A program made the translations under genes and the position numbers. 64,000 nucleotides of DNA from an uncultured delta proteobacterium (GTDB taxonomy: Bacteria; Desulfobacterota; WTBG01; CAIYCZ01; CAIRTM01): NCBI GenBank assembly GCA_963804955.1, contig CAWDSQ010000032.1, forward strand, positions 98,900-162,899, in the 5' to 3' direction. The notes under the pieces were generated by a model that was given only the letters and a program-made list of their open reading frames with translations, had not been told where the DNA came from and did no database searches. Of this stretch, positions 1 to 52,978 are shown piece after piece (position 1 is the stretch's first letter; every line of letters begins with the position of its first letter).

Positions 1-576
1 GCTCCTGAAAGCAATCGCTGAGTATGCGTCGAGGCGCATGGCAGACTGCAGGTCAGAGCCGAAAGGCTTCTCCACAATGATGCGCCGCCAGGCGCCGGCT
101 GGCTCGGCGGCAAGGCCTGCCTGCCCGAGAAGCGTTATGACCGTTTCAAATAAAAAGGGCGGCAATGCCAGATAATAGAGGCAATTTGCACCTGTCTTGT
201 GCGTGCCGCTTATGCGGGAAATGGCCTCAGCAAGGGCATCAAATGATGCCTTCTCCTCATACAGAAGCTGCTGATAATAGAGCTTTTCGGAAAACTCCTG
301 CCACCGTGACATATCGGCCCCTGCCTGCTCCACGGACTGCTGCAGGCGGCTGCGAAACGCAGGCGAGTCAAGCTGCGTGCGGCTGCAGCCCAGAACGGCG
401 AAATCACGCGGCAGCGAACCAAGCAGATACAAACGGTACAGTGAAGGGATTATTTTCCGGGTTGTCAGATCTCCCGATGCGCCGAGAATGACGATCAGGC
501 AGGGATCGGTCGGCGGGTCAAACCTGCAGGCATCTGCCGCAGGCAGGAGTGTTGTGCTGAAAACAGTATCGGTCAT
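1..576 (-). CDS. zwf: Glucose-6-phosphate 1-dehydrogenase, N-terminal part (runs off the left edge)
   Basis: Manual minus-strand translation from the ATG at 576: MTDTVFST...PCLIVILGASGDLTTRKIIPSLYRL...; near position 90, WRRIIVEKPFGSDL. GASGDL and EKPFG are G6PD signatures. Not in the ORF track because there is no stop inside the window. Confidence 0.93.
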   Translation of the reverse strand, partial: MTDTVFSTTLLPAADACRFDPPTDPCLIVILGASGDLTTRKIIPSLYRLYLLGSLPRDFAVLGCSRTQLDSPAFRSRLQQSVEQAGADMSRWQEFSEKLYYQQLLYEEKASFDALAEAISRISGTHKTGANCLYYLALPPFLFETVITLLGQAGLAAEPAGAWRRIIVEKPFGSDLQSAMRLDAYSAIAFRS

Positions 577-1748: not shown

Positions 1749-1863
1749 GTTACTGATTTGATCCACAAAACCACGGACTCTACGCGGGCTATGCTCAGTA
1801 GACGTGAATAGTATTGTGAGACCGTTAAAATGCTTTCCCATGCTTTCCCAGCAAACAGCCGCG

Positions 1864-2388
1864 TTTACCGCCCCGGATAAACAAAAGGCCCTGCCCGGAA
1901 TCAACATCCTGTACGCGCAAACGAATGCACTCCATCAAGCGCAGGCCGCCGCCATAGAGCAGTTTAGCCATCAGGGCATGATTGCCCGTCATTGTTGCAA
2001 GCAGCCGTTGCACCTCGGCCTGCGTGAGCACGGTAGGTGGCCGTTGATGGCGCTTGCTGCGGGCCGGTTCAATGTCGCCGTCCAGGGGCTTGTCAAGCAC
2101 GTCCCGATAGAGAAACACCAGGGCGTTCAGCGCCTGCTTCTGTGTTGAGGCTGAAACCTTGCCCTCTGTTGCCAGATGGGAAAGAAATCGTTCAATATCC
2201 TTCGTTCCGAGGCTGTTCGGATGGGTTTTCCCGCCGAAATGATGGATATAGCGCAGTATCCACTGGCAATAACTTTGTTCCGTGCGGTATGCATAATGAT
2301 GATAGCGGAGCACCTCCCGGACCTGATCCATGAGTTTGAGGCCGGGATTCGGGTGGAACTTCGGTTTGTTTTTATTTTGACTTTCCAT
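1864..2388 (-). pseudogene. intI: Integron integrase IntI, N-terminal 175 aa
   Basis: KLMDQVREVLRYHHYAYRTEQSY...SASTQKQALNALVFLYRDVL...LLYGGGLRLMECIRLRVQDVD...IRGGK. Similarity stops after RGGK, where G(G/S)KDR is expected. Confidence 0.95.
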
Positions 2389-2437
2389 GATTCATCACAT
2401 ACTATCGCGATAAATGGAAATTAACTAGAAAAAAATC

Positions 2438-2561
2438 AATAAGTGGAAAACAACAGAATTAATTTTTCATCTTTTAAGATTAATATGATAATAAGTGGAA
2501 AATCCGTCCACCTATAGGGGGTGATATGACGGACAAGTTTCCACTTATTGCACTGTTGGTG
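2438..2561 (+). other. Putative attI region of the integron
   Basis: Lies between the intI start and the first cassette. Core GTTGGTG at 2555-2561 nearly complements R'' CTCCAAC of attC1. AATAAGTGGAAA occurs at 2438 and 2490, and inverted at 2538-2549. Confidence 0.6.
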
Positions 2562-2569
2562 AAACAATA

Positions 2570-2857
2570 ATGAAAGAAAAACCAATTTATTTTGTTTACC
2601 TTAATCCGGTGGTCGAAGACAAAAGATGGTTTTTCCTGAAAGAATTTTTTAACCCTGGATTTATGGAGCGCGACAAATCTCCGGTACTTGTTTGTTTTTC
2701 ACTGGACACATCTTTTCATGCTCTTCTTGCGTTAAAGGCCCGAAACTTCTCAGACAATAAGAACAAAACAATCCATATCCCATATTCAATAGTTGATGGT
2801 ATTCAGGAGATACCTTTTTTGAAAAGCCAAGCTGGATTCCTTGGCTTAAAAGACTAG
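2570..2857 (+). CDS. Cassette 1: hypothetical protein, 95 aa
   Basis: AT-rich ORF between the attI core and attC1; no recognisable family. Confidence 0.65.
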   Translation: MKEKPIYFVYLNPVVEDKRWFFLKEFFNPGFMERDKSPVLVCFSLDTSFHALLALKARNFSDNKNKTIHIPYSIVDGIQEIPFLKSQAGFLGLKD

Positions 2858-2904
2858 CCCTATACTGAAATCCCTATGCTGGTGCATGTCCATAGAACTA
2901 AGAC

Positions 2905-2993
2905 CTCCAACAAGGCGCTTCACTGGACGGCATGAAGCACCGGTTTTTTATGGTTTAGTCACCGGCTGCCGCCAGTGAGCTTTATCCTTAGCA
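2905..2993 (+). other. attC1 (R' core mutated, CTTAGCA)
   Basis: CTCCAAC-AAGGC-GCTTCACTGG...CCAGTGAGC-TTTATC-CTTAGCA: R''/L''/L'/R' layout with 5- and 6-nt spacers. Confidence 0.8.
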
Positions 2994-3020
2994 GCACAAT
3001 ATAGAAAAAAGGCGATTGAT

Positions 3021-3224
3021 ATGGCGAATCTTCCCGGTCAACAGCCAGATATAAAATTTTGTCCTGTCTACAAATCTGATTTAAAAAACATACCAAGAAC
3101 AAAAATGAAGTCAAAGGGGTATGTAAGGAAAGACGGCACAGTGTCTGAATACACACATACGTATGAATGTAATAATTGCAAAAACCGTTTTGAAATTAAC
3201 CAAGATAGGAATGCATTTAGCTAA
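3021..3224 (+). CDS. Cassette 2: small zinc-ribbon-like hypothetical protein
   Basis: CPVY...CNNC (first CxxC apparently broken). The stop falls in AGCTAAC (3219-3225), an R''-like remnant with no downstream attC body. Confidence 0.55.
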   Translation: MANLPGQQPDIKFCPVYKSDLKNIPRTKMKSKGYVRKDGTVSEYTHTYECNNCKNRFEINQDRNAFS

Positions 3225-3285
3225 CTATGTTTCCTTATGGGCTATTTTCTGCCGGTACTGATCAACAATTTTGCCAAGAACAGCT

Positions 3286-4108
3286 ATGCGCAGAGAAATT
3301 CCATCTACTATAATCGCAGTGGTGGCGGATGTCGCATCAACTGCTGAGACGCACGCAACCTTAGACAGTTTATTTATGTATGCGGGCACACCAGGTGATC
3401 CACCCGTAGGCAGCAAGCATGCTAAGGCACTCGAATGGCTGAGAAAAGCCAACCGTGATGAAACCGTTGATCCAATGAAAATTCTCGGTAAACTCATCGA
3501 AGGATATATGGAAGCCGTAGATGATCCATCCGCTTGGAACAAGGAAGCAGTTCAGGAACGAAAAGAAAAAATTGGGAAAGCGTTAGGTTCTTGTAATCTT
3601 CAGGTATATAAAAGGAGGAAAGGTGTATCGGCAGGCACTAGCAACGCCGCTCGCGGACGTCTAGAGCAGTTTACAGTCAAGAAAAGAGATTTCGTTTCAA
3701 TTAATGATGAGTTTGACAGAGCATTAAAGTCTGTTGAATCATCACCGCGTGAAGCTATTTCCGCAGCATGCAATATCCTCGAGTCGCTTTTTAAGACTTA
3801 CATAGAGGAAGAAAAACTCGAAGTGCCGCGAAGCAAGACTTGCAGCCAGTCTGGTCCGTAGTCCGCAAACATCTTGGGCTTGATCCAAGCCGTATTGAGG
3901 ATAGAGACATACAAGAGATTATGAGCGGTATATTCGCAGTTGCTAACGGCATCGGTGCGCTTCGTACACATGCCAGTTCGGCACATGGTGCTGGCGAAAG
4001 CGAAAGTATAAAATCGAACCACGTCACGCGCGGCTAGCAGTTCATTCTGCTCACACATTAGCACTGTTTATTTTGGCGTAATCGTGGGAAAAGAAAAAGA
4101 ATGGGTAA
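3286..4108 (+). CDS. Cassette 3: abortive-infection family protein (Abi_C-like), frameshifted
   Basis: Joined ORFs 3271..3861 and 3840..4037 plus a tail: EFDRALKSVESSPREAISAACNILES...GIGALRTHASSAHG...PRHARLAVHSAHTL. The stop overlaps attC R''. Confidence 0.75.
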
Positions 4109-4173
4109 CTTCGCACTGTACTGGGCGTGGTTCCGCTGGCGCTCCACCACGCCTGTAACCTTTCGCGTTAGCC
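4103..4173 (+). other. attC after the Abi cassette (degenerate L boxes)
   Basis: GGGTAAC-TTCGC-ACTGTACTGGGCGTGG...CCACGCCTGTAACC-TTTCGC-GTTAGCC. Confidence 0.75.
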
Positions 4174-4194
4174 ACAAAGTTAAGGCATAATTTT

Positions 4195-5066
4195 ATGACA
4201 AAACAAATGCCGACGTTTGATTCGACTGATGAATCCACTCCTACAAGCCTTATTTGCCCTTGGTGGTTCTGGATCAATAGATGAGATTTACGAAAAAGTT
4301 CTTGAACAGGAAGAAATTGATGAATCAATCTCATCTATTCCTCATAATCCGGATAAAACCAATCAAACGGAAGTTGCATATCGACTGGCATGGGCAAGAA
4401 CGTATCTAAAAAAATATGGGTTTCTTGAAAATTCAAGTAGGGGTGTATGGGCTTTAACCAAACTTGCAAAAGATAAAAAATTTGTAGAACAACACATAGT
4501 TGTTAAAGAAGTAAGAGAAGCTGATAAGGCGGAATCAAAGCATAAAAATAAAAAAGCAAAAAATGAGCAAATCGAGTTAATCGATTCCGATACGCCAGAA
4601 GCCCAAGATTGGCGTGAAGAACTTTATCATCTTCTTACGAAAGATATTTCTCCTGATGCTTTTGAAAGACTTACGCAACGTTTATTAAGGGAATCAGGTT
4701 TCGTGCAAGTAGAAGTAACCGGCCGCACAGGTGACGGTGGTATTGATGGAAAAGGGATTGCTAAAATCCATGGATTCATGAGTTTTCATGTTATTTTCCA
4801 ATGCAAGAAGTATCAAGGTTCAATATCTGCTAGTGATATTCGAGATTTTCGGGGCGCAATGGTTGGAAGAGCTGACAAGGGTTTATTTATAACCACAGGT
4901 TCATTTGACACCCGCTGCCGTGAAAGAAGCAACACGTGATGGTGCGCCACCAATTGATCTTGTAGATGGAGATCAATTGGCAGATAAATTAAAAGAATTT
5001 CAATTAGGCTTAAAAACTGAAATGATAGAACAAGTAACAGTAGATAAAAATTGGTTTAAAAATTGA
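4195..5066 (+). CDS. mrr: Cassette 4: Mrr-family type IV restriction endonuclease, frameshifted
   Basis: Mrr_N wHTH (YRLAWARTYLKKYGFLENSSRGVWALT) plus catalytic domain (FERLTQRLLRESGF...GDGGIDG...QCKKY...IRDFRGAM...GLFITTGSF); C-terminus continues in another frame (PIDLVDGDQLADKLKE). Confidence 0.92.
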
Positions 5067-7565: not shown

Positions 7566-8118
7566 ATGAAGCGAGCACTGCTGGTCATCGATGTTCAGAA
7601 TGAATATTTTTCCGGCCTGCTGCCAATCACACACCCACAAGGTCACCTGGCCAATATACTGAGGGTCATGGATGCGGCGGCGGCCCATGACATTCCTGTC
7701 GTGGTGGTGCAGCACACCTCTACCGAGCCCGACAGGCCGTTCTTCAAGCGCGGCACACCCAAGTGGGAACTGCACCCTGAGGTACATGGCTCGGCCGCAT
7801 AGCCTCTTGATAGAAAAAAATCTGCCGGGGAGTTTTACCGGGACCGTGCTTGAGCCATGGCTGCGCGAGCGGAGTATTGACACCGTCGTTATTGCGGGCT
7901 ATATGACGCATATGTGCTGCGATACCACGGCGCGGCAGGCAGTACACCGGGGCTTTACCGTCGAGTTTCTGAGCGATGCAACGGGCACCCTGCCCCTGAG
8001 CAATGCCGCAGGCGAGGTCAGCGCCGAGGAATTGCAGCGAGCCATTTTATGCGCGCAGCAGATGCTGCTCAGCGAAGTCATCAGCACGGACGCGTGGTGC
8101 CGGCGTATTGCCGGTTAG
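7566..8118 (+). CDS. Isochorismatase/cysteine hydrolase family protein (one frameshift)
   Basis: [12 protein letters not shown]...[12 protein letters not shown]...[16 protein letters not shown]...FLSDAT. Confidence 0.9.
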
Positions 8119-10008: not shown

Positions 10009-10382
10009 TGCATCCTTCCTGAGGCGGCCCTTCTCCAGCTGTGAATAGATTAAACTGGAAGATTTAACAAAATGCTATAGCCATTAGTCCTGCGAGTATC
10101 TTGAATACTGATCCCGGTTATTCCGGCTTGCTCGTAATCGTTTTTCTGCACGCTCAAAAAGAATTCCCCTGAAGCGGAAAGGACACGGAATGCTGCCTGC
10201 AATGGTGCGCGCAGCGCACCCTGCAGCTGTGCAGGGATACGTGCATACATGAAACTCTGTGCGGCGCCTGGGCGGCACGTATCCTGTCCCTCATGGCTGA
10301 AACGGGATTGTATCCAGCCCCTTCTTTATGTGGTGCAGCAGCTTACCCAACAGGGGGGGCGGAAAAGAAAATCCGGGCGCCT

Positions 10383-10910
10383 CTACTGCGGCAAATAAGG
10401 CTTGTTGCAGCCTTCGGGCAGAATCTTTTTGATTATGTCCTCGATTTTATCGAAATCATGAACCCCCAGCAGCCTCTTTTCGATGCCGCCCTGGGTATTG
10501 ACGATAAGCGTTGTGGGCAGGGTAAAAACCCTGTTCTGCCTGGCGACCTTGATCGTGTCGATAAGGTACAGATGCCGTATCTGGTGATCTTTGATAAACT
10601 GGCTGATTTTCTGATCATCACAGCTCACATCAATGTCGATGCCGACAACGACAAGCCCTGCCTGCTCATATTTATCCCTGAGCCGGCGCACCACGGGCAG
10701 CATCTCAACGCAGGGCTTGCAGTAAATCGAGCCGAAAATAATCAGCATGGTCCTGCCGCGGAATGACGAGGTGGAAATCTGCTGCTTGGTCGTAAAATCG
10801 TTCAGCGTGAAATCAACCAGGTCGTCTGCCTGCGCGGAAACGCCAATCGCACCGGACAGGGCAAGGCATGCCAGGGAACACCAAATAAACAGAGGCCGTG
10901 ATCTTTTCAT
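10383..10910 (-). CDS. Exported TlpA-like thiol-disulfide oxidoreductase
   Basis: Signal peptide; FGSIYCKPC; cis-Pro motif LPTT. Confidence 0.88.
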   Translation of the reverse strand: MKRSRPLFIWCSLACLALSGAIGVSAQADDLVDFTLNDFTTKQQISTSSFRGRTMLIIFGSIYCKPCVEMLPVVRRLRDKYEQAGLVVVGIDIDVSCDDQKISQFIKDHQIRHLYLIDTIKVARQNRVFTLPTTLIVNTQGGIEKRLLGVHDFDKIEDIIKKILPEGCNKPYLPQ

Positions 10911-10935
10911 AGAGCTCTTTCTCGAAAACAACTTT

Positions 10936-12621
10936 TTATTTGCAGATATTCGGCACCATCCCGTGATTGCTGCACATGATGGTGTTGTCTAAAAATAAAT
11001 ATGTTCCGTCAAGCGGGCATGTGGCTTTTAATTCTTTTGCGGTGCTCTGCAGAAAGGCGTCGTCCACTGCAAGATCCGGCTGCTTGTGTTTCATGTCGGA
11101 AAGCTTCGCCCTGACCGTGCACATATTATTCACGCACTGCTCCTTCCAGTGCTCATAGCGGAACTTATAGGTCTTCAGCTCACCGAACACCTTTTTGCCG
11201 GCATTCAGCGACTCGTAGAGAAGACTGGAAGACATGGTTGCCGTGGTAATCGCATCGGCTTTCGGGTCGAAGGGAAAATCGCCAAAAATACTTTTCCCGA
11301 CAATCTGTTTTTTGATTTTTTCCACGTCTTCATCGGTCCACGGAATATTGCCCAGTTTTGTCAGTTGCAGAAAGAAAAAGTCCTGTATAACGCCATCCTG
11401 ATCCAGAACATAAAAGAAATGGCTGTCATGACAGATATCACAGAGGCTTGATTTGCTCTCAAGACGCGCAAAAAGAAACACGCCATCACGCCGGGGCTCC
11501 AGGGTGACCACATAGACGGCATTGCCGTTATCAAGCACTTCCTTTTCAACGGCTGCGGCCTTTTTACCATCTTTCTCAACATGGTTTTGTATGAGTTTGA
11601 CGATTTCTTCTTCTTTTGCCTCCGGCACAGCCTTATATTCACCTTTGCCCTGAATAATGGCCTGAGCATTGTAGAGCGTTATACCCTCGTCCTTGAAGGC
11701 GATGCGGCCGTACTCATTAATGAAATAGACTGTCGGGCCTTCTTTGGACCTGAATTGCGCCATGGCTTTTGCATCGACGGGATCGCCGGCATAAAAGCCC
11801 TCGGCTGTCAGTACCTTCGGCAGGGTAAAGCCCTTATACTGCACGATAAGAACCGGAATGTCGGGAAACTGCTTTTTCATATCCATAAGAATTTTTATCT
11901 GGTTTTTCCGGTTGCGCGTATCGTTTGCAACAGGGTAGCGCTTGTCGGAAGGGAAATAGAGCAGAAACTTTTTCCCCTGCAGCTTCTTGTCGTCAATAAT
12001 GCCCTGGGCTGTCTTGATCGCAAATGCCGGCACCCTGTTGCCGGGTGTTGTTCCGGCAAAAGACCCGCGCAGGGCGAACCTGACGGTGTTGAGATAGCGG
12101 TCCTTGGAGGTAACCCCGCCTGCGTGATAGTCGATTATAAAGCGCTGGTCCTCTTTGCGGAGAATATAGGTATGCGGCGTTCCCTGCACATTGCCCGTCA
12201 TATTGAAAATATCTTTTTTCCTGTCGGAAAAAATGGGGTACAGCGCGCCGAAATTTTTCTTGAAATCCCGTATTTCCTCAGGGCTGTTGCCCACGGCAAT
12301 GCCCAGCATGCAGACACGGCTGCTCAGCTCGGGGTCTTTCTGAATGGTCGTGAACAGGTCATTGAAAATTTCGACCTGCAGGCGGCAGGTATGGCAGTAC
12401 ACATTAAGAAACTCAATGATGATGATATCGTGAGACAGCTCACTTAATGAAAACTCCCTGTCCGCTGGAATGCGCAGGTACGAGCACTCCTGCGGGGTCA
12501 GAATATTTTCCCGGGAAAACGGGGGAAAGGGATCTCCCACATTGATTGCAGAGGCGCGTTCAACACCTGCGCACAATGACGCCAGACACAGAATGACATA
12601 CAAAAACATGGTTCTTTTCAT
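10936..12621 (-). CDS. Exported multidomain redox protein: TlpA (CHTC) + degenerate redoxin + CxxCH + FMN-bind-like + Cys-rich C-terminus
   Basis: EFLNVYCHTC...GTPHT; second redoxin-like region with no CxxC; CDICH; DAITTATMSS; CVNNMC...CPLDGTY...CSNHG. Confidence 0.8.
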   Translation of the reverse strand: MKRTMFLYVILCLASLCAGVERASAINVGDPFPPFSRENILTPQECSYLRIPADREFSLSELSHDIIIIEFLNVYCHTCRLQVEIFNDLFTTIQKDPELSSRVCMLGIAVGNSPEEIRDFKKNFGALYPIFSDRKKDIFNMTGNVQGTPHTYILRKEDQRFIIDYHAGGVTSKDRYLNTVRFALRGSFAGTTPGNRVPAFAIKTAQGIIDDKKLQGKKFLLYFPSDKRYPVANDTRNRKNQIKILMDMKKQFPDIPVLIVQYKGFTLPKVLTAEGFYAGDPVDAKAMAQFRSKEGPTVYFINEYGRIAFKDEGITLYNAQAIIQGKGEYKAVPEAKEEEIVKLIQNHVEKDGKKAAAVEKEVLDNGNAVYVVTLEPRRDGVFLFARLESKSSLCDICHDSHFFYVLDQDGVIQDFFFLQLTKLGNIPWTDEDVEKIKKQIVGKSIFGDFPFDPKADAITTATMSSSLLYESLNAGKKVFGELKTYKFRYEHWKEQCVNNMCTVRAKLSDMKHKQPDLAVDDAFLQSTAKELKATCPLDGTYLFLDNTIMCSNHGMVPNICK

Positions 12622-12794
12622 TGCCCCATCCTCCCCCTGTTTAGTAATAGTTTTACTCTATTTAATAACAGATATACTATGACCCTGCAAGAACAACAAC
12701 CATCTAAATACGGCCCGAATTGCCGGCGGATACCCGGCCCCGGGTTTTTCTTTTACCTTGACCTCTCCGTGGACATTATTTTACTATATAATTA

Positions 12795-13007
12795 ATGGAA
12801 AAAGCGAAAAAGCCTCAATGCCCGGACTGCTCCTTCTGCCAATTCTGCTCGGAAACCCGCTGCCGGGCCTGCCGCGGACATGGCGCCGGGCCGCGTAAGC
12901 TGAGCATGAAAGAACAGATTGCCATTCACGAATTGCTTAACAGGGCTGCCGGCGCGCCTGATCAACCCATATTTTATGTACCAAAAAAACGAAAGGAACC
13001 GTCATGA
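12795..13007 (+). CDS. Small Cys-rich hypothetical protein
   Basis: CPDCSFCQFCSETRCRACRG (6 Cys); its stop overlaps the next start. Confidence 0.65.
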   Translation: MEKAKKPQCPDCSFCQFCSETRCRACRGHGAGPRKLSMKEQIAIHELLNRAAGAPDQPIFYVPKKRKEPS

Positions 13008-14127
13008 TAAACCGATCCGCAAGCCTTGCCGTTCTTGTGTGCCTGCTCATATGCATACCCGCATATGCAGAGCGGCAAAAAATTATAGCTGTCGGCGACA
13101 TTTTCCCGGCTGTAACAACAGACTATGCTTTCCCGGCGGAACAGCTTGCCTATTTTGGCATTGACCGCGGGCTGCTTTCCCTGTTCACGAAAAACAGCTT
13201 CTCCATAGCCGACATAAACGCCGAAATTATTTTCGTCGAGTTTTTCAATAATTACTGCAGCTCCTGTCAGGCGCAGGCCCCTGTTCATGAATGATGTCTA
13301 CAAAGCCGTTCAAAAAGACCCGGTGCTTCGCAGCAAGGTGCGCTTCATCGGCATCGGAGCCGGCAATAATGAACGTGAGGTGGCCCAGTTCAAGGAGCGG
13401 CACGAGGTGCCCTTCCCCCTGATTCCGGACCAGCGGTTTTCCTTCTATGATGCCATTGGAGAGCCGGGAGGCACGCCGTTCATGCTGATTCTCAAAAAGC
13501 GCGCTCATGAGGCTGTGGTCGTGGGCACGCATAAGGGGCTGACTCAAAATGCATCGTTTTTTATCAAAAGCCTCACAACAGCCGTTGAACAGGACATCAG
13601 CACACTCACCAAACGCGTCACGGAACAGGATATACCCCGTGACGATACGCGTCAGCTGGCTCTGAATTTGACGCCGAAGCAAACCCTTGACGCTGTATCA
13701 AAAAGCATGGCTGATGCCTGCCCCGACTGCGGGCCAGCATCAGACATCAAACAGATACACAACATCCTCCGGCGAAAGCCTCTATACCGCGACCGTCGAT
13801 GCCGCAGGCAAGCCCCTGACCCTGTACAGCAGCCTGCGCAGCGAGCAGCCTGTCTGCGATGTATGCCACGGCATTCATTTTATCATCACCTTTGATGGAA
13901 GCGGCATCATACGCGACTTTACGCCGCTGCATATAACAAAATACGGCAATGTCGACTGGAATGAATACGACATTGAAAATATGCGCAAGCAGCTTATGGG
14001 CAAAAAGCTCAAAAAAGAACTGATTTTTGATCCTGCCATGGACGCCATATCAACTGCCACCATGAGCTCGGCCCTTATTTATAAGGGTGTCAATGAGCTG
14101 CGGGCGGTGTATAAGGAGCTCAACTAG
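13004..14127 (+). CDS. Exported TlpA (CSSC) + CxxCH + FMN-bind-like protein (two frameshifts)
   Basis: Joined ORFs 13004..13294, 13287..13895 and 13687..14127: EFFNNYCSSC, GGTPF, CDVCHGIHF, ITKYGN..W, DAISTATMSS. Paralogous to 10936..12621. Confidence 0.8.
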
Positions 14128-14170
14128 GAGAGGCGTCGGCGCATGAACATCAATGAAGCGAGGTGCGGCT

Positions 14171-15874
14171 ATGGGCATTGATATCACGATTCAAATCGGC
14201 GGCGAGGCAGGCCAGGGCATACAGACCGTCGGCCAGCTGCTTGCGGCTGTCTGCCGGGAGGCCGGCCTGTATGTTTTCGGCATCAACGATTTCGAGTCGC
14301 GCATCCGGGGAGGCCACAGCTTTTATCAGCTGCGCATTGCCGACCATCAGGTTCGCGCTCCGCACCACCGGGTCAGCCTCCTGATCGCCATGGACGACGC
14401 CACGCTGCGGATCCACCGCGACCAGCTGCTGCCCGGCGGCCTGTGCCTGCTCAACTCAGAAAACACCGTGGCCGAGGGGCCGGTTCGGCCCATTGCATTT
14501 CTTAAGCTTGCCCGTGATGCAGGCGGGGACATACTGGCCAATACCGTGGCAACGGCCGCCGCTCTTGCCCTGCTTGGCGCGCCCGGCGAGCTTCTTGAAA
14601 AAGTCCTGCACACGCAATTTGCCGGCAAAAGCAGCAAGGTCCTTGAGAATAATCTCACAGCCGCCCGCCTGGGCTGCACCGCGGTTAAGGGCATAGAGTT
14701 TAGCTGCATCAGCGCATGGCCTGCCTGCGACAAACACCGCATGATCATGGAAGGCACTGCAGCGCTGTCGCTCGGGGCGCTTGCCGGCGATTGCCGCTTT
14801 GCGAGCCTTTTACCCCATGTCGCCTGCCACGGGCATCATGATGAATCTTGCAGCCTGGCAGGACCGCTTCCCCCTTGTCGTGGAGCAGGCGGAAGACGAA
14901 ATTGCCGCCGCAAACATGATTATCGGGGCATCATATGCAGGCGTCCGTGCGCTTACCGCAACCTCCGGCGGCGGCTTCTGCCTCATGACCGAAGCGGTCG
15001 GGCTTGCCGGCATCTCGGAAACCCCCATCGTCGTTATAAATGCGCAGCGGCCCGGCCCGGCAACAGGCCTTGCAACCCGCACGGCCCAGGCTGATCTGCG
15101 ACAGGTCATGCATGCCGGGCAGGATGAATTTCCCCGCTTTGTCTTTGCGCCAGGCTCTCCCGAGCAGGCCTACGAAACCACAGCCCGTGCCTTTGACCTT
15201 GCTGACACCTATCAGGTGCCGGCTCTTATCCTTGTTGACCAGTATTTCAATGATTCGCTCTACACGCTTGAGGATGACCTTCAGGCGCCTGAAACGGTCA
15301 GACAGCCACACCATTGACGATGCCTCTCAGAAAAATCCGGCAGACTATCAGCGCTACGCCCTGACCGATTCGGGCATATCGCCCCGCGCTGTTCCCTGCG
15401 CCGGCGAAACTCTTGTCATGGTCTGCGGCAATGAGCACAAGCCCGACGGGCACTCAACCGAGAATGCCGGGCTGCGCACTGCCATGGTCGACAAGCGGGC
15501 GCGAAAGCTGCACGGCATGGCTAGCTGACATGCGGCCGCCGACTGTTGCTTACCCGGCTGCAAAAATCCGCCTCATCTGCTGGGGCTCAACGCTGGGAGT
15601 TGTTGCCGAGGCAGTTGAGCTGCTGCGCGCAGGCGGCACCGATGCCGGTTATGCGCACTTCTGCGATATCTGGCCTTTTCCCCGCACGGCAGCCGAAGCA
15701 GCCCTTGCCGGCGCAGAGCGCCTGATTTGCGTTGAACAGAACAGCACTGCCCAGTTTGCCGGCCTCCTGCGGCAGGAAACCGGCATTGTCGTCACGCAGG
15801 CAGTTCTTAAATACGACGGCAGGCCCCTGTATCCGGTTGAAATCGTCAATGCCGTCATGAAAGAAGGGAGGTAG
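14171..15874 (+). CDS. korA: 2-oxoacid:ferredoxin oxidoreductase alpha subunit (frameshifted)
   Basis: IGGEAGQGIQT, SRIRGGHSF, YPMSPAT, EQAEDEIAA, TATSGGGF, QRPGPATG, VEQNSTAQF, KYDGRP. Confidence 0.92.
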
Positions 15875-15877
15875 GAC

Positions 15878-16733
15878 ATGGCATGCCCGAAGGATTTCGA
15901 CAATAGCGTTGAAAACAAATGGTGCCCCGGCTGCGGCAACCACCCGATCTTAAAATCCATGAAAGACGCCCTTGCGCAGCTCGGGCTCGAGCCCCGCGAT
16001 GTGCTCATAGTATCGGGCATCGGCCAGGCTGCAAAAACGCCCCATTACCTGAACTGCAATTTTTTCCACGGCCTGCACGGCCGGGCCCTGCCGGTTGCTA
16101 CCGGAGCAAAGGCGGCAAACCACAGCCTCACGATTCTTGTCAATTCCGGCGACGGCGACTGCTATGGCGAGGGCGGCAACCATTTCATGAATGCCATACG
16201 CCGCAACCTGGATATTACGCTGCTGGTGCATGACAATAAAGTCTACGGCCTCACCAAGGGGCAGGCATCGCCCACATCCGATCTGCACATGATTACCCGT
16301 GCCCAGCCCCACGGCGTCATACTCGAGCCGTTCAATCCCCTGGCCGTGGCGCTGGCTCTCAAGGCAGGCTTTGTGGCCCGGGGCTATGCCGGCAATACGG
16401 AGCATGTTAAGCATGCTCATTCAGGAAGGAGTGCGGCACAAGGGGTTCAGCCTTATTGATATTCTGCAGCCCTGCGTATCGTTCAACCATGTGAACACCT
16501 ACCAGTGGTATGCGGAGCGCGTGTATGATCTGGCAAAGGAGGGCCATGACAGCTCCGACTTTATGGCCGCCATGGTAAAAGCCCGCCAGTGGGGCGATAA
16601 AATTCCTGTGGGCATACTGTACCGGGAAGAAAGCCCGTCATTCACCGACCGCATCGACGGGCTCAAAGACGGGCCCCTTACGGGCCGGACATACGATCCG
16701 GCGCGGCTGCAAAAACTGCTGGCTGAATTTTAG
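15878..16733 (+). CDS. korB: 2-oxoacid:ferredoxin oxidoreductase beta subunit (frameshifted)
   Basis: [45 protein letters not shown]. Confidence 0.93.
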
Positions 16734-25459: not shown

Positions 25460-25696
25460 ATGATTGTAACCAGCATCAAAGAGGCCAGAGGGAATTTAAG
25501 CTCTCTGCTGCAAAAAGTAGAGCGTGGCGAGGAAGTGGTTATAACACGCCATGGCAAACGCATTGCGCGAATCACGTCGCCGACAGGTCAGACAAAACAC
25601 CTTCCAGGTCTTTCTGATTTCAGATCAGCCATTGCGGTCCAAGGGAAACCACTCAGTCAGGCAGTCATTGATGTGCGCAGCACAGAGAAATACTGA
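25460..25696 (+). CDS. Phd/YefM family antitoxin
   Basis: SIKEARGNLSSLLQKVERGEEVVITRHGKRIARI. Confidence 0.9.
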   Translation: MIVTSIKEARGNLSSLLQKVERGEEVVITRHGKRIARITSPTGQTKHLPGLSDFRSAIAVQGKPLSQAVIDVRSTEKY

Positions 25697-26133
25697 TGGA
25701 CTACTTTGACACAAGCGTTTTAGCGGCATACTACTGCCCGGAGCCCAACAGCCCTGCGGCAGAGAAAATCATACTGCATTCTAAGAGCCCTGCAATCAGC
25801 GACCTTACGGAACTTGAGCTTGCATCGGCCCTATCACGAAAAATCAGGGAAAAGTCTATCACGCGGGAAGACGGCCGTAAAATTATTGCCCTGTTTCAAT
25901 CGCATGTTTCGCAGGGGCTGTTTCAAAAAATAGCTGTCGAGCAGGAACACTTTCAGATTGCGCGAGCCTGGATAGCTCAATTCACAACGCCACTCAGAAC
26001 TCTTGATGCCCTTCATCTTGCCATCGCGCATACGCAGAAAGCATTATTTTTCACTTCCGATCTGCTTCTTGTGAAAGCTGCCCGTCACTTTGGAATCAGC
26101 GTGAAACTTGTCAGCAATAGCCTTAAGCCGTAG
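25696..26133 (+). CDS. VapC/PIN-domain toxin
   Basis: YFDTSVL...ELASAL...LRTLDALHLA...TSD. Confidence 0.9.
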   Translation: MDYFDTSVLAAYYCPEPNSPAAEKIILHSKSPAISDLTELELASALSRKIREKSITREDGRKIIALFQSHVSQGLFQKIAVEQEHFQIARAWIAQFTTPLRTLDALHLAIAHTQKALFFTSDLLLVKAARHFGISVKLVSNSLKP

Positions 26134-26200
26134 CTTTGAAGCTTACGGCCCACTTGTGCCCCATGTGTTTGTGTAATCCCCTTCACATATTTCCCTTTTT

Positions 26201-26249
26201 ATTAAGTCAACTATTTTAAGTTGACTTAATATATTTAACAAGCTATATA
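26201..26249 (+). promoter_or_regulatory. 12-bp perfect inverted repeat overlapping a sigma70-like promoter
   Basis: ATTAAGTCAACT-ATTTTA-AGTTGACTTAAT; -35 TTGACT 26221-26226, 17-bp spacer, -10 TATATA 26244-26249; ATG at 26256 with no RBS. Confidence 0.7.
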
Positions 26250-26255
26250 AAGCTT

Positions 26256-26681
26256 ATGAATGCATCATATAATAACATAATGAGGCGTTTCGCCTGCTAT
26301 GGAGTGCTGCACCGGGAGGCTGTAAAGAACGACCGTACGGCGTTAGGTCAGCTTATCCGACGGGGCTTCGCCCAAAAGGCTTACAGGAGCGGGCGCCTTT
26401 TTTACGAGCTAACTGAAAAGGCTCTGCCTCTGCTGGAGTGTCAGCGCATAAAGCTCCTTGAAGATGCTCAGATGCACTTGCTCATCGAGGATGGTTCTGC
26501 TTTTTTTCGCGCGCTTTTCGATGACGTGCGGTTTTTGGATGAAACAAGCCCCGAGGCCCAGGACTTCATCTTTCTCGGGGACTGGCAGCTAAGGAGGCCT
26601 GTTGTTCCGTCGCAGCTTTTGCTCTCTCAGCTGCGCTTTTATCGCGACTGCATCCCTAGGCGCACCAGGAAGGCAGCATGA
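26256..26681 (+). CDS. Hypothetical protein with wHTH-like N-terminus
   Basis: ALGQLIRRGFAQKAYRSGRLFYELTEKA resembles a winged-helix wing; overlaps the next start (ATGA). Confidence 0.65.
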   Translation: MNASYNNIMRRFACYGVLHREAVKNDRTALGQLIRRGFAQKAYRSGRLFYELTEKALPLLECQRIKLLEDAQMHLLIEDGSAFFRALFDDVRFLDETSPEAQDFIFLGDWQLRRPVVPSQLLLSQLRFYRDCIPRRTRKAA

Positions 26682-27244
26682 AGAAGACAAAACACTATAG
26701 CGCGGTAACGCGCGAAGACTTGGTCAGGATTCTGGCACAGATAGACGATCTGCTGGTAAAGCAAAAAAGGAAGATCTCCGTCACGACGATCGGCGGGGTT
26801 TCAATCATACTCCAGGGCTTCCGCGATCGTTCGACGACGGATATTGACATCGCCAATGTTGAAGATGCGGCTGCGTTTCAGGAAACCTGTGCAGGCAAGG
26901 GTATTCCTGTCGATATTGTTACCATCTCTTCAACCGTGGACTTCCTGCATGCACCGAAGGTCGTTCTTTTTAGCGGCAGGGCACTGGTGGTGAACTCGGT
27001 AACAGCGCAGGATTTGATAAAACTCAAGCTCGAACGGTTCTACAAGCAGGATCCGGAAGACATCTATGCGATAATCGAAAAAACCTCACTGCCCTACGAA
27101 CGATATAAGGCCATTGTCTCTGACATGATCACAGACTTCATCGGCAACCCCCGCGCCCTGCTCCTCTCTGCGATGGTTATCGTCGAAACGGTGTATCCTG
27201 AGAATAAGGCGGATTTTGGGACCCTGCTGACAGAGTGCAGCTAA
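26678..27244 (+). CDS. DUF6036/AbiEii-like nucleotidyltransferase
   Basis: IGGVSI...RSTTDIDI (GG and DxD) and DLIKLKLERFYKQDPEDI. Confidence 0.75.
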   Translation: MKKTKHYSAVTREDLVRILAQIDDLLVKQKRKISVTTIGGVSIILQGFRDRSTTDIDIANVEDAAAFQETCAGKGIPVDIVTISSTVDFLHAPKVVLFSGRALVVNSVTAQDLIKLKLERFYKQDPEDIYAIIEKTSLPYERYKAIVSDMITDFIGNPRALLLSAMVIVETVYPENKADFGTLLTECS

Positions 27245-27416: not shown

Positions 27417-28768
27417 ATGAAACGAATTCTCACCATTGCAGCCTCCGACAGCGGCGGCGGCGCAGGCATACAGGCCGACATAAAAACCATCACCGTCCTG
27501 GGCGGCTACGGCCTCTCGCGCCCTCACAGCCCTGACCGCGCAGAATACTCGTGAGCGTCACGGCTATTCATGCCGTTCCGCCTGAATTTCTGCAGGCTCA
27601 GCTTGATGCCGTGCTCACGCGATATCGGCGTTGATGCGGCAAAAACCGGCATGCTGCACAACAGCCGAAACCATCGCTGTTGTGGCCCGGGCCGCAGAGC
27701 AGTATAAAATCCCCAATCTCGTTGTCGATCCGGTCATGCGCTCAAAAGGCGGCAGCTGCCTGCTGGAAGACGCGGCAATCGAAGCGCTCAAGCGTGAGCT
27801 TCTGCCCCGGGCAGCGCTGGTCACGCCCAATCTCGATGAGGCGGCCCTGCTGTGCGGATTTCCGGTCGACGGACTTGAAGCCATGAAAGCCGCCGCAAAA
27901 AGCATCCATGCTCTGGGCCCGAAAAACGTGCTGATTAAAGGCGGGCATCTTGCCGGCGACTGCATTGACCTGCTCTTTGACGGCAAGGAATTCACGACAT
28001 TTGCCGGCCCGCGTTTTGACACCAAAAACACGCATGGCACGGGCTGCACCCTGTCGGCTGCGATTGCAACCGGCCTTGGCCAGGGGCTATGCCTTGCGCA
28101 GATGCCGTCCGCCGCGCAAAAGACTATGTCACGACAGCCATCCGGTTTGCCCTGCCCTTTGGCAGCGGCCACGGCCCCACCAATCACCTTGCCTGGACAG
28201 ACCGCAATGCACAGTTCTACACCTGCGGCCTTGATCTTGAGGCAGCGGTTGCCACGCTTCAAGCAAGCGCGCATCGGCAGGCTCATACCGGAGATACAGT
28301 CAAATCTCGGCTTTGCCCTTGCAGCGGCCGAAACGCCCGACGATGTCATGGCATACCCGGGCCGCATCATACGCCTTGACGACAGCATAACAACGGTTTC
28401 ACCGCCGCGGCCCGGCGGCTCGCGCCATATTGCAAAAATAATTCTTACCGCCATGAGATACAATCCGGCATACCGCTCAGCCATGGCACTGTGCTACGAG
28501 CCTCAGCTGATTGACTGCATCAGATCGCTTGGCTTTACGGTTGGAGAATTCGACCGCCGCCAGGAGCCGGCAAATGTTAAAGAAATTGAGGGATCATCCC
28601 TTGAATGGGGAACAAAAAGCGCCATTGAAACAGCCGGGGGCACAGTGCCCGATATCATATTCGACCGGGGCGATGTGGGCAAAGAGCCTGTCACGCGAGT
28701 TCTGGGCGCCAGCCCGGCTGGACGTGGCCGGCAAAATCATAAAAATTGCACAGGAGTACAAAGGATAA
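27417..28768 (+). CDS. thiD: HMP/HMP-P kinase fused to a ThiN-type thiamine-phosphate synthase domain (frameshifted)
   Basis: [47 protein letters not shown]; then LIPEIQSNL...PGRI...GGSRHIA...[10 protein letters not shown] (ThiN). Confidence 0.88.
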
Positions 28769-30055
28769 TGCTTATCCAACAGGCCCGCAAGGGCATCGTG
28801 ACACCGGAGATGGAAAAAGTGGCAGCCGCAGAGGGCGTGACCACGCAGTACCTGCTTGAAGAAATAGCCCTCGGGCATGTCATCATCCCGGTCAACAAAA
28901 ACCACCGCACCATCACCCCCATGGGCATCGGCCGTGGCCTTTCCACAAAAATAAATGCAAATATCGGCACCTCCAAGGATTGTTCAAACCTTGACGAAGA
29001 GCTCAAAAAGCTCGATGTTGCCATTGCAGCAGGCGCCCACACCGTCATGGATCTGAGCACCGGCGGCGACATCAATGCCATCCGCCGCGAAGTGCTCAAG
29101 CGCTCCACCGTGCCGGTGGGAACCGTGCCTCTCTATCAGGCAGCAATCGAGGCTACCAAGAACAATAAAAAAATCGTTGATATGACAGCCGATGACATGT
29201 TCCGCGTCATCGAGCAGCAGGCAGAAGACGGCGTCGACTTTGTGACCGTGCACTGCGGCCTGACGCGCGAGGCTGCTCTGCGGCTCAAAAACCAGGGCAG
29301 GATCATGAGTGTCGTGAGCCGGGGCGGCTCTTTTACCGTTGCCTGGATGATTCACAATAAAAAAGAAAACCCCCTCTATGAGCAGTATGACCGGCTGCTT
29401 GACATTGCAGCGGCCTATGACATGACGCTGAGCCTGGGCGACGGGATGCGGCCCGGCTGCATAGCCGATGCCACGGACCGGTGCCAGATACAGGAGCTCA
29501 TCACCCTTGGCGAGCTTGCGCAGCGTGCCATGGAGCGCGGTGTGCAGGTCATGATCGAAGGGCCCGGCCATGTGCCCTATCGACCAGATTATCACCAACA
29601 TGCAGCTGCAGAAACGGCTCTGCAACGGTGCGCCTTTTTATGTGCTCGGCCCCCTTGTGACCGATTCGGCCCCCGGCTATGACCATATCACCTCAGCCAT
29701 CGGCGGCGCCATTGCCGCCATGCACGGAGCCGACTATCTCTGCTATGTCACGCCGGCCGAACATCTGCGCCTGCCCACGATTGAAGATGTGCGCGAAGGC
29801 GTCATCGCTTCCAAAATTGCGGCCCATGCAGCAGACATTGCCAAGGGAAACAAACGCGCCCTTGAGCGCGACATCACCATGGCAAAATACCGCAAGGCGC
29901 TTGACTGGGAAGGCCAGATAAAAACCTCCCTTGACCCTGAAAGGGCCCGCGCCATGCGCGACAGCCGCAAGCCGACCGACAGCGATGTGTGCACCATGTG
30001 CGGCGAATTCTGCGCTATAAAGGTTTTGAACCAGGAAGAAAACTGGGATTTTTAG
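28768..30055 (+). CDS. thiC: Phosphomethylpyrimidine synthase (frameshifted)
   Basis: [50 protein letters not shown]. Confidence 0.95.
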
Positions 30056-33815: not shown

Positions 33816-35667
33816 GTGAAGGGAACTACATCAGTGAAACTGATAAACTGGACTTTGAGAAAAAATTTTCTTATCCCGACCCTGGTGCTCATCGTTCTCG
33901 GCATGGGCATTTCGACTATCATTTCCTATGTGCAGACCCGCGCCATGATGAATGAAAGCGCCATGGCACAGATGACCCAGATGAGCGCCATGGCGACCAA
34001 GAACATAGGGTTCTGGATTGACAGCAGAAAAATCGAAGTGGGGAACTGGGCCACGGAGCAGATTTTTGCAGAGGCTTTAAACGACACGGATCTCGGCCGC
34101 GAAACGCGCTTTATCGCCGACGAGCAGTTCGAGGCTTTCAAAAAAAACGCCACCTATTATGAAGTTATAGCCCTTGCCAACAAAAATGGAGAACTTGTCG
34201 CATCAATAAACAGGGATGCGCTGATCGGAAAAATAAATGTTTCCGAACATCCTTTTTTCAAGCAGGCACTGGCGGGCAAGCAGGCAATTTCCGATGCCAT
34301 GATATCAAAAACAAGCGGCAAGCCATATTTTGCCATCGCAAGCCCTGTTTTTTCGCTGGACAAAACTGAAACGCTCGGGGCGCTTATAGGAGTTATCAAT
34401 ATAGAGTATATGAGCAGCCAGCTCGTCGAGCCCATCAAGGTCGGCAACACAGGCTATGCCTATATATTAAACAGCGCGGGCCTGACTATTGCGCACCCTG
34501 AAAAAAGCAAAGTCATGCAAAACGAACTACGGCGCAACGGACTTCGGCCGGGATATTATCAGCAAAAAAAGCGGCAGTCTTGAGTATACGTTTGAGGCAA
34601 AGCCCGCAATTGCCATATTTGACGAAATACAAGAGCCCAGCTGGATCGTGGTGGTAACGGTATCGACTGAGGAGCTTTTTGCCGCTGCAAAAAAAATGCG
34701 CGTCATAAATTTCATGATAACCACCATAACGATCCTCATCATCGGTCTCATGCTTACCTTGTTTACTCACAAAATAAACACGAACTTAAGCCGCATTATC
34801 AAGGGCCTCTCCGGCGCCTCCGATCAGGTTGAGTCGGGAGCCGATCAGGTTGCCTCCTCAAGCCATTCGCTTGCACAGGGTTCAAACGAGCAGGCTTCAT
34901 CCATTGAAGAAACATCGGCATCCCTTGAAGAGCTCACCGCCATGACCAGGCATAACGCAGCCAATGCCACACAGGCAACCGCCATGGCCGAGAACGCTTT
35001 CACGGCTGCAGAGAGGGGCTCTGCGGCGATGGAACGAATGTCGGGTTCGATGCGCAATATAAAAACCTCATCAGACCAGACAGCAAAAATACTCAGAACA
35101 ATCAATGAAATAGCCTTTCAGACCAATTTGCTGGCACTCAATGCGGCTGTTGAAGCGGCCAGAGCCGGTGAAGCAGGACGGAGCTTTGCCGTAGTTGCGG
35201 AGGAAGTGCGCAACCTTGCCAGGCGCTCTGCCGAAGCTGCCCAAAACACAGCAGAGCTTATCGAGGAAGCCCAGCAGTATGCCGACTCAGGCGTTACGGC
35301 AATGGAGGAAACCGCTACGATCCTTACCGACATCGTCGCGAGCATCCAGCACGTCAAGCAGCTCAATAGCGAAGTGGCGGAGGGAAGCAGGGATCAAGCC
35401 GAAGGCATCAGCCAGATCAGCAAGGCCATTTCACAGATGGAAAATGTTACCCAGGGAAATGCGGCCCATTCCGAGGAATCGGCATCGGCGAGCCAGGAAC
35501 TCTCCAATCAGGCCCACAAGCTCAATCAGATGATCGATGAATTAATCGGCATGATCCATGGCTCAACTGCCATCCGGGCACGGTCGGGCTCAGACAGTCT
35601 GCCTTCCACCCCGCAGAAACGGGAAACGCTGCCTGCCCTGCAGGCCCGCCAAATGAGCAAACGGTAA
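33816..35667 (+). CDS. Methyl-accepting chemotaxis protein with dCache domain (frameshifted)
   Basis: Two TM, Cache (GYAYI...IAHP), [37 protein letters not shown]. Confidence 0.93.
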
Positions 35668-37638: not shown

Positions 37639-37862
37639 AGAAGTCAGAATTCAGTAGTCAGAATTCAGAATAGAAGACATACAGGATTCAAATAATTGAC
37701 GTGTTTCTTTCATGGAATAAACAAGTAAACATTTTTAGTTTTTGTTTTTTCTACTCAATTCCGGTTTCGGGATTTTGATCTCTAACTACTGGATTCTGGC
37801 TACTGGCTTCTGTATTCTGTATTCTGGCTGCTGAATTCTGAGTTCTGGCTCCTGAATTCTGA
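37639..37862. repeat. Two oppositely oriented 7-bp tandem arrays
   Basis: AGAAGTC AGAATTC AGTAGTC AGAATTC (37639-37673) and TGGATTC TGGCTAC TGGCTTC TGTATTC TGTATTC TGGCTGC TGAATTC TGAGTTC TGGCTCC TGAATTC (about 37790-37860). Confidence 0.75.
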
Positions 37863-52887: not shown

Positions 52888-52978
52888 TATTTTTTCCTCA
52901 TAGTGTGGGCAGAAATCTCGGATGGGCCTGCATCTGCAGGCCTCTTTTACCACCTGTTTCCGCCCGTGTAGTGTACGC

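Follow-up and report, generated by a model that had tools for sequence, protein, structure and literature searches.

The window, the whole 64,000-nucleotide (64-kb) stretch of DNA analysed here, comes from an uncultured delta proteobacterium and carries between positions 10,383 and 14,127 a compact cluster of genes for predicted redox proteins. At its centre are two paralogous genes, referred to below as gene A and gene B, for proteins in which a thioredoxin-like domain is followed by a putative flavin-binding domain. The two genes are divergent and lie head to head, not back to back as the original prediction described them. A small tlpA gene starts 4 nt past the stop of gene A on the same strand, and because of this short gap the two are probably co-transcribed. 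On the other side, the stop of a gene for a cysteine-rich mini-protein overlaps the start of gene B (ATGA). The locus is composed of the following features (ORF, open reading frame):

10383..10931, minus strand: small TlpA/ResA-like oxidoreductase, 182 aa, with CKPC at 10710..10721 (ORF listing and translation)
10936..12621, minus strand: gene A, long form, intact 561-aa ORF, coordinates checked by translation
12547..12621, minus strand: gene A, putative signal peptide, read by eye
12052..12546, minus strand: gene A, TlpA-like domain, CHTC at 12385..12396
11626..12048, minus strand: gene A, Cys-free middle alpha/beta domain, residues 192-332
11176..11622, minus strand: gene A, predicted divergent FMN_bind (RnfG/NqrC-like) domain, residues 334-482; CDICH at 11428..11442, DAITTAT at 11236..11256
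10939..11175, minus strand: gene A, Cys-rich tail found in the long form only, residues 483-561
12795..13007, plus strand: 70-aa mini-protein with six cysteines (CPDCSFCQFCSETRCRAC), intact ORF
13004..14127, plus strand: gene B, short form, broken in three frames (ORF listing)
13256..13267, 13855..13869 and 14041..14061, plus strand: gene B motifs CSSC, CDVCH and DAISTAT, respectively, verified by translation
14153..16733, plus strand: 2-oxoacid:ferredoxin oxidoreductase genes (gamma/alpha fusion and beta subunit), from Pfam matches on five ORF pieces

Profile matches and predicted structures show each of the two paralogues as a fusion of an N-terminal TlpA/ResA-like CxxC domain with a C-terminal domain that appears to be a divergent relative of FMN_bind. 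The TlpA-type motifs (CHTC in gene A, CSSC in gene B) and a shared block, CD[IV]CH..HF...TK.GN..W...FDP..DAI[TS]TATMSS, had been noticed before, and translation confirmed them in both paralogues, as it did a third TlpA with CKPC flanking the pair. Gene B runs from a putative signal peptide through the TlpA-like domain (CSSC) to the FMN_bind-like domain (CDVCH, DAISTAT). All three redox proteins begin with a basic stretch followed by a hydrophobic one and A-x-A, and are predicted, from reading by eye, to carry Sec signal peptides.

Assignment of the first domain to the TlpA/ResA type follows from a Pfam match above the cut-off, a thioredoxin fold and a CHTC that is invariant at the N-terminus of helix 1. 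With 35.1 bits, AhpC-TSA clears its cut-off of 26 in gene A, and AhpC-TSA/Redoxin is all that Pfam sees in this protein. The AF2 model of gene A has a mean predicted local distance difference test value (pLDDT) of 87.4, and the top fold matches of its thioredoxin domain are ResA and CcmG, with template modelling (TM) scores to target of 0.84-0.86. The small TlpA matches AhpC-TSA with E 1.5e-12 (48 bits) and Redoxin with E 1.9e-9; it reaches 69 bits with the NCBIfam ResA subfamily, under the cut-off of 170, and gene A lies far under the same cut-off at 32 bits. A homologue of the small TlpA follows the long form in 12 loci, the window included.

The C-terminal domain was modelled as residues 333-561 of gene A (pLDDT 92.8). 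Chain G of five Rnf entries, which we take to be RnfG from the chain letter and length, occupies ranks 1, 2, 3, 6 and 8 of the fold matches to this model (probability 0.84-0.97, TM to target 0.36-0.55); these are the only high-probability matches. When 65 family domains were scanned singly, Pfam FMN_bind was found at E<=1 in 59, with a best value of 2.2e-5. Since the Pfam matches are weak and the window copies score under the cut-off, the domain is described here as divergent FMN_bind-like and not as a certified member of that family. A search of the ESM Atlas with gene A residues 334-561 gave no usable match. The prediction of an FMN_bind fold made from the bare sequence has RnfG as the best fold match in its favour, while the E-values of 0.09-0.22 and the sub-threshold Pfam scores of the window copies keep it short of a firm assignment. 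The proposed fusion of a TlpA CxxC domain with an FMN_bind-like domain carrying an ApbE-type site is supported by Pfam, by the RnfG fold match and by a motif kept family-wide.

Two further parts of gene A were considered. The middle domain (residues 192-332) was suspected, from the order of its strands and helices, to be a second, Cys-free thioredoxin-like domain; hhalign against domain 1 gave a probability of 0.24% and left the idea unsupported. The tail of the long form is predicted in both models to form two helices and a small hairpin. It has no Pfam or NCBIfam match, is absent from short forms, and may serve as a module that binds metal or is rich in disulfides.

A word-index search with gene A listed 100 proteins. 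About 96 are full-length homologues at 35-90% identity, and four shorter ones of 322-370 aa share the architecture of gene B. Their source names are exclusively 'TlpA family protein disulfide reductase', 'peroxiredoxin' and 'redoxin domain-containing protein'. In an alignment of 51 long forms with 34-90% identity to gene A (alignment A1), C76, C79, C394, C397, D399, T421, K422, N425, D456, A457, T462, C496, C535 and C550 are invariant, and H398, H401, C501, H553 and C560 nearly so; the conserved positions of the tail are thus C496, C501, C535, C550, H553 and C560. A second alignment (A3) comprises 65 C-terminal domains picked by C[DN][VIL]CH, a choice that makes its Cys/His columns invariant by construction and leaves the flavin-motif columns free. 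The A3 profile, run against 1.84 billion cluster representatives, found 342 at E<=1e-3, 202 at <=1e-10 and 112 at <=1e-30. Because only 342 clusters emerge from so large a collection, the family, as delimited by this profile, is small and distinct. All 63 genomic loci recovered come from metagenome-assembled genomes; 48 carry titles that name delta-proteobacteria, Thermodesulfobacteriota or an order of these, and single loci belong to NC10, Gemmatimonadota, SAR324 and candidate division B38. By these comparisons, genes A and B belong to one uncharacterised family, found mainly in Desulfobacterota, gene A as its long form (~560 aa) and gene B as its short form (~370 aa).

The candidate flavinylation residue of gene A is T462, within DAITTAT. 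In two publications (PMC8238504, PMC12052999), the motif recognised by the flavin transferase ApbE is given as D-x-x-[S/T]-G-A-[S/T]. The corresponding columns of A3 read as follows:

Motif Asp (D121): D in 65 of 65
Canonical Gly position: S 23, T 13, Q 10, R 7, M 4, A 4, G 3, L 1
Motif Ala: A 59, G 5, S 1 of 65
Target residue: T 59, S 6 of 65

The acceptor position is a Thr or Ser throughout. The canonical DAVSGAT occurs in six members (L049, L053, L063, P0199, P0211, P0215). According to the 2025 ApbE review (PMC12052999), a change of the motif Gly to Ala reportedly leaves about 50% flavinylation.

In 9 of the 63 loci an apbE gene is placed directly upstream of the short form, the ends of the two overlapping or nearly abutting; three of the apbE products were scanned and matched PF02424 with E 3.5e-65 to 4.8e-67. 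The idea of a covalent flavin gains support from this adjacency, from SGAT in some members and from RnfG as the best fold match. Of the genes whose co-occurrence had been proposed as a check, apbE was found next to the family in these nine loci (one clade); ccm/ccs and dsbD/ccdA do not recur nearby.

The same operons contain a further gene. A conserved exported protein of ~130 aa with C-x6-C (c8) precedes apbE and the short form in L031-L036, L041, L044 and L062 (for example L041:8393-8785). No NCBIfam family fits it. Genes for a PAS histidine kinase and receiver-GAF regulators stand beside the c8/apbE/short-form operon.

The second constant element of the C-terminal domain is a pair of cysteines. 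Among the word-index homologues, CxxCH is found at the same position in 98 of 100, the exceptions being one truncated protein and one with CDVCS. Across the fetched proteins we anchored 234 domain instances on the flavin motif, and 220 of them have a CxxC 55-70 residues upstream. The next residue is His in 208 of these; in the remaining 12, which come from separate 50%-identity clusters, it is E, Q, S, G, Y, A or D. The downstream His varies likewise. Judged from these counts, the cysteine pair is better kept than the His that follows it and is the constant feature. Ten of the 14 instances lacking CxxC are canonical repeats of a single protein, P0237, in which the loop reads G-F-G-G or G-Y-x-x. 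To judge from these repeats, CD[VI]C(H) takes the place of the canonical G-[FY]-G-G loop. P0237 itself, a 1636-aa multi-FMN_bind protein of a multi-flavinylated type, has at least 10 canonical D-A-[LV]-[ST]-G-A-T repeats and is the sole canonical FMN_bind protein among the best 150 profile matches.

We then asked for a predicted complex between the thioredoxin domain (residues 26-190) and the FMN_bind-like domain (334-482) of gene A, with flavin mononucleotide (FMN) included. It scored 0.65, against 0.00 for the best of 3 controls; among reference cases, 116 of 157 solved complexes and 2 of 215 mismatched pairs attain the mark used for such scores, counts that are a rough guide for a run with a custom alignment and a ligand. 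Contacts agreed to at least 92% between runs, and pLDDT of the partners was at least 88. The predicted interface joins residues 73, 75-79 (CHTC) and 145-150 of the thioredoxin domain, the last of which we read as the cis-Pro loop, to residues 391-396, 423, 453, 462-463 and 466. In the model, the thioredoxin active site touches both C394 and T462. Because the partners are two domains of one chain, the model supports this geometry and does not show it.

Taken together, we consider it about an even chance (probability roughly 0.5) that the family is a periplasmic flavin-disulfide-thioredoxin relay, that is, an extracytoplasmic redox enzyme. ApbE would attach FMN to T462, and C394 and C397 next to the flavin would form a redox-active disulfide that trades electrons both with FMN and with C76/C79. 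The thioredoxin domain could then swing out and act on thiols or disulfides of the periplasm, with the small TlpA (CKPC) encoded alongside as a likely client or relay. The whole would be an extracytoplasmic, FMN-based counterpart either of a thioredoxin reductase-thioredoxin fusion, if it works reductively, or of QSOX, if oxidatively; it could run in either direction. We put forward more tentatively, at somewhat less than even odds, that these proteins constitute an unrecognised class of flavoprotein disulfide oxidoreductase, in which covalent FMN on an RnfG-like fold sits beside a CxxC disulfide serviced by a tethered thioredoxin.

If so, anaerobes would possess a route, independent of DsbD, by which periplasmic thiols gain or give up reducing equivalents. 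The enzyme would be either a 'thioredoxin reductase' of the periplasm or a sulfhydryl oxidase of the QSOX kind whose acceptor is not oxygen. To our knowledge, all routes that feed or drain periplasmic thiol-disulfide systems use membrane proteins (DsbD/CcdA, DsbB/VKOR). ApbE-flavinylated domains are known as one-cofactor electron carriers; covalent FMN, a flavin-proximal Cys pair and a thioredoxin site meeting at one interface would directly link two extracytoplasmic redox currencies and would give the few known flavin-disulfide enzymes a further scaffold. Current annotation does not reveal the family, as names see the redoxin part only and the flavin domain falls under the Pfam cut-off. For the latter reason, surveys based on Pfam FMN_bind would have missed it.

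The original prediction treated 13004..14127 as one gene for an exported protein, the paralogue of gene A. Gene A is indeed uninterrupted and both carry the motifs, whereas 13004..14127 is not a single ORF: its 1124 nt are no multiple of 3 (translation table 11), and the reading passed through two 1-nt insertions. The frames present are 13004..13294, 13287..13895 and 13687..14127, overlapping and in three different frames. DNA alignment with three intact 373-aa homologues (L001, L003, L004) placed one insertion near 13282 and the other within ~13754..13766. Gene B might accordingly be a true pseudogene that leaves gene A alone functional here, and its two frame-disrupting insertions relative to three intact homologues are what a pseudogene would have. 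We regard this as improbable, at perhaps one chance in a handful. At least nine conserved genes of the window are split in the same way, among them topA and pnp, and the frames of gene B, indels aside, keep every family motif. Neighbouring ORFs that overlap carry matching halves of a single Pfam family in the case of an isochorismatase, the Kor/POR alpha and beta genes, thiC, a chemoreceptor, a U32 peptidase, topA and pnp. Because topA and pnp are normally indispensable, an indel-prone assembly is the likeliest cause, and the two frameshifts of gene B are, on this comparison of genes, most likely assembly errors. Programmed frameshifting was rejected, as close homologues are uninterrupted. The split genes lie at 7566..8118, 14153..16733, 27631..30055, 33816..35667, 37751..39050, 41814..44034 and 51318..52953, and suggest about 1 indel per 5 kb, as in an error-prone assembly.

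Several observations weigh against the relay reading. In both gene A and gene B a Thr replaces the canonical motif Gly. With Pfam FMN_bind, the domain of gene A scores 14.7 bits (E 0.048) and the last piece of gene B 16.8 bits (E 0.011), against a cut-off of 22. No fold match of the C-terminal model reaches E<=0.001, and profile searches of PDB sequences with A1 and A3 retrieved thioredoxin-like chains and no FMN_bind chain. The nine loci with apbE belong to one clade, whose members share 60-95% identity and reach no more than 54% with the rest of the family, so that the linkage amounts to roughly one evolutionary observation. A narrow hidden Markov model built from this ApbE subgroup found no apbE anywhere in the 64-kb window, nor in the remaining 54 loci, and none lies within 10 kb of any long form. 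No DsbD/CcdA, NapH-, MsrQ- or PepSY-like gene recurs nearby (62 window ORFs and 50 recurrent-neighbour representatives). The His after CxxC, present in 208 of 220 and followed by a conserved D-x-H, also fits heme or metal. Finally, the docking is also what a heme-maturation role predicts, because the thioredoxin domain resembles ResA/CcmG, which act on CxxCH. Three alternatives draw on these points, and we consider each of them unlikely.

The first is that CxxCH binds a c-type heme beside covalent FMN. The protein would then be a flavocytochrome, a thiol-heme-flavin carrier, in which the ResA/CcmG-like domain either holds the motif in the reduced state that heme ligation needs or hands electrons onward. 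ResA and CcmG, which are the best structural and NCBIfam matches of the thioredoxin domain, naturally act on the CxxCH of apocytochrome c, and the model docks the active site of that domain on the CxxCH loop. The motif is kept in 98 of the 100 word-index homologues and in the 208 anchored domains, and the host phyla generally make c-type cytochromes. A c-type cytochrome, however, requires its His, and this residue is not obligatory across the family: in 12 of 220 domains it is lost with both cysteines kept, and these domains belong to separate clusters. The heme reading of the original prediction therefore fared less well than its flavin counterpart; of the two features it singled out for conservation, the Thr, taken as the target T/S position, is kept in 65 of 65 domains and CxxCH loses its His in those 12 anchored domains. 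Neither Pfam, NCBIfam nor the fold search gave a cytochrome family or fold; the sole PDB sequence match of this kind was an insignificant one to a multiheme subunit (E=2), through the bare motif. No ccm/ccs gene was found among the 62 window ORFs or the recurrent neighbours. Moreover, the loop with the motif belongs to a small beta-sheet domain in which FMN must also fit, and a thioredoxin active site modelled onto the CxxC loop fits a redox disulfide. Because of the His-less members, the missing cytochrome signal and the crowding of heme and FMN in one small domain, heme is not favoured, though possible for the His-bearing majority.

Alternatively, C394, C397, H398, D399 and H401 may bind Zn, Fe or Cu as a structural or sensor site, to which the Cys-rich tail might contribute in long forms; the thioredoxin domain would then act on other substrates. 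Such a site has in its favour the clustering and high conservation of these residues and the five conserved cysteines and one histidine added by the long form. In both models, moreover, pLDDT of the loop dips to block means of 77-78, as a missing ligand would give. We hold it no more probable than heme. Each of the two His positions is replaced in part of the family with the cysteines retained, short forms keep the motif without the tail, and the predicted contact of the thioredoxin domain with C394 fits thiol-disulfide exchange better than a buried metal.

A third possibility, likewise doubtful, is that the flavin was lost in the lineage of genes A and B, leaving TlpA-type oxidoreductases of the ordinary kind whose C-terminal module serves in structure or in substrate binding. 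The replaced Gly, the sub-threshold FMN_bind scores, the lack of apbE within 10 kb of any long form and in the window, and public names that recognise the redoxin part only are all compatible with this. For a dead site, however, it is unexpected that D121 and the target Thr/Ser are kept in 65 of 65 domains that share 27-90% identity, and the motif variants grade into the canonical SGAT. In addition, genomes often carry apbE at another site, such as next to rnf or nqr, as stated in PMC8238504.

The relay proposed here was compared with known systems. With the FMN_bind proteins RnfG and NqrC (PF04205), the family shares the predicted fold, weak Pfam matches, D-x-x-[ST]-x-A-[TS] at the same place, the extracytoplasmic location and, in one clade, adjacency to apbE. 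It differs from them in scoring under the Pfam cut-off, in having the Gly mostly replaced and CD[VI]C(H) in place of the G-[FY]-G-G loop, and in a domain that is fused to a thioredoxin and not part of a membrane complex. The known TlpA, ResA and CcmG oxidoreductases are single-domain proteins reduced through DsbD/CcdA. The fold, the position of CxxC, the putative cis-Pro loop and AhpC-TSA above the cut-off are common to them and the family, which in contrast has the flavin-domain fusion and no dsbD/ccdA recurring nearby.

QSOX/Erv and the thioredoxin reductase-thioredoxin fusions (NTRC) tether a thioredoxin CxxC to a flavin domain that has its own flavin-adjacent CxxC. The proposed family would share this tethering logic as a functional analogy only, with no homology. 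In those enzymes FAD is bound non-covalently, on Erv or pyridine-nucleotide-disulfide folds; in the family, covalent FMN would sit on an RnfG-like fold in the periplasm of an anaerobe.

The closest idea found in print is a DsbD-DUF3570-thioredoxin-like flavinylation system, hypothesised by Meheust et al. in 2021 (PMC8238504). It too combines ApbE flavinylation with thioredoxin-like chemistry outside the cytoplasm, but it does so through separate proteins, with DUF3570 as flavin carrier, DsbD and DUF4266; here the two chemistries would share one polypeptide built on an FMN_bind scaffold. DsbD (PF02683), DUF3570 (PF12094) and DUF4266 were found in none of the 62 window ORFs, 15 representatives and 50 recurrent-neighbour representatives.

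The original prediction knew of no characterised protein with this architecture, and our searches bear that out. No curated Pfam or NCBIfam family with it was found; NCBIfam offered sub-threshold ResA-like matches only and no family that fits the fusion. Full-text searches, whose range ended short of the supplementary tables of Meheust et al., found no paper on a thioredoxin-FMN_bind fusion, and the word 'thioredoxin' does not occur in the 2025 ApbE review (PMC12052999). Within the literature searched, the building blocks are known, and the fusion and the flavin-proximal Cys pair are undescribed.

The mini-protein that flanks gene B has its six cysteines in the invariant arrangement CxxCxxCxxCxxxxCxxC. 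Its cysteine count and its position are as originally described; its export is not borne out, as reading by eye found no hydrophobic N-terminus and the protein is predicted to be cytoplasmic. It is conserved upstream of the short form in 9 loci, counting the window, and these ~70-aa proteins overlap the start of the short-form gene there (window, L001-L006, L009, L021). Pfam and NCBIfam gave no match, and its Atlas matches are 'hypothetical protein' clusters of Thermodesulfobacteriota only. In L037, L042, L047, L050 and L058 an FdhE-like Cys-rich protein (PF24859) takes its position. Kinship between the two was considered and dropped: in a single comparison, 5 of 10 residues were identical (E 0.047), which is not a meaningful likeness.

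Downstream, the 2-oxoacid:ferredoxin oxidoreductase genes begin 25 nt past gene B and are themselves split by frameshifts; the Pfam matches on their five ORF pieces are POR, POR_N, PFOR_II, TPP_enzyme_C and PFO_beta_C. In 7 loci, the window among them, the gene pair is flanked by intact KorA/KorB homologues. By gene order, the Kor/POR genes are thus a conserved neighbour of gene B, with no functional link between them shown. A scan of 10200..14300 for promoters and terminators gave counts not above shuffled expectation; a promoter-like site at 12758..12787, just upstream of the mini-gene, is a consensus match only.

Other genes recur near the long forms. Exported proteins of ~150 aa with two conserved cysteines (c11), often in tandem, were seen in L002, L007-L011, L014, L016 and L021 (for example L008:8794-9255); no NCBIfam family fits them. 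They recur with genes for 6-phosphogluconate dehydrogenase and glucose-6-phosphate dehydrogenase, a fragment of the latter lying at 1..576 of the window. Downstream of the long form/small TlpA pair in three loci is a 656-aa protein with a thioredoxin-like domain and NHL repeats (L021:12501-14468).

Elsewhere in the window, 1825..4939 holds a truncated phage-type integrase ORF and an Mrr-like restriction endonuclease at a G+C content of 0.43-0.48, compared with 0.51-0.60 elsewhere, and may be a mobile-element remnant. A PIN-domain protein, an unassigned 141-aa ORF and a DUF6036 nucleotidyltransferase-like protein at 25696..27244 may form a module of the toxin-antitoxin type. At 27631..30055, phosphomethylpyrimidine kinase, ThiN and ThiC domains follow one another in one frame, an unusual triple fusion for thiamine biosynthesis, with a frameshift near its end.

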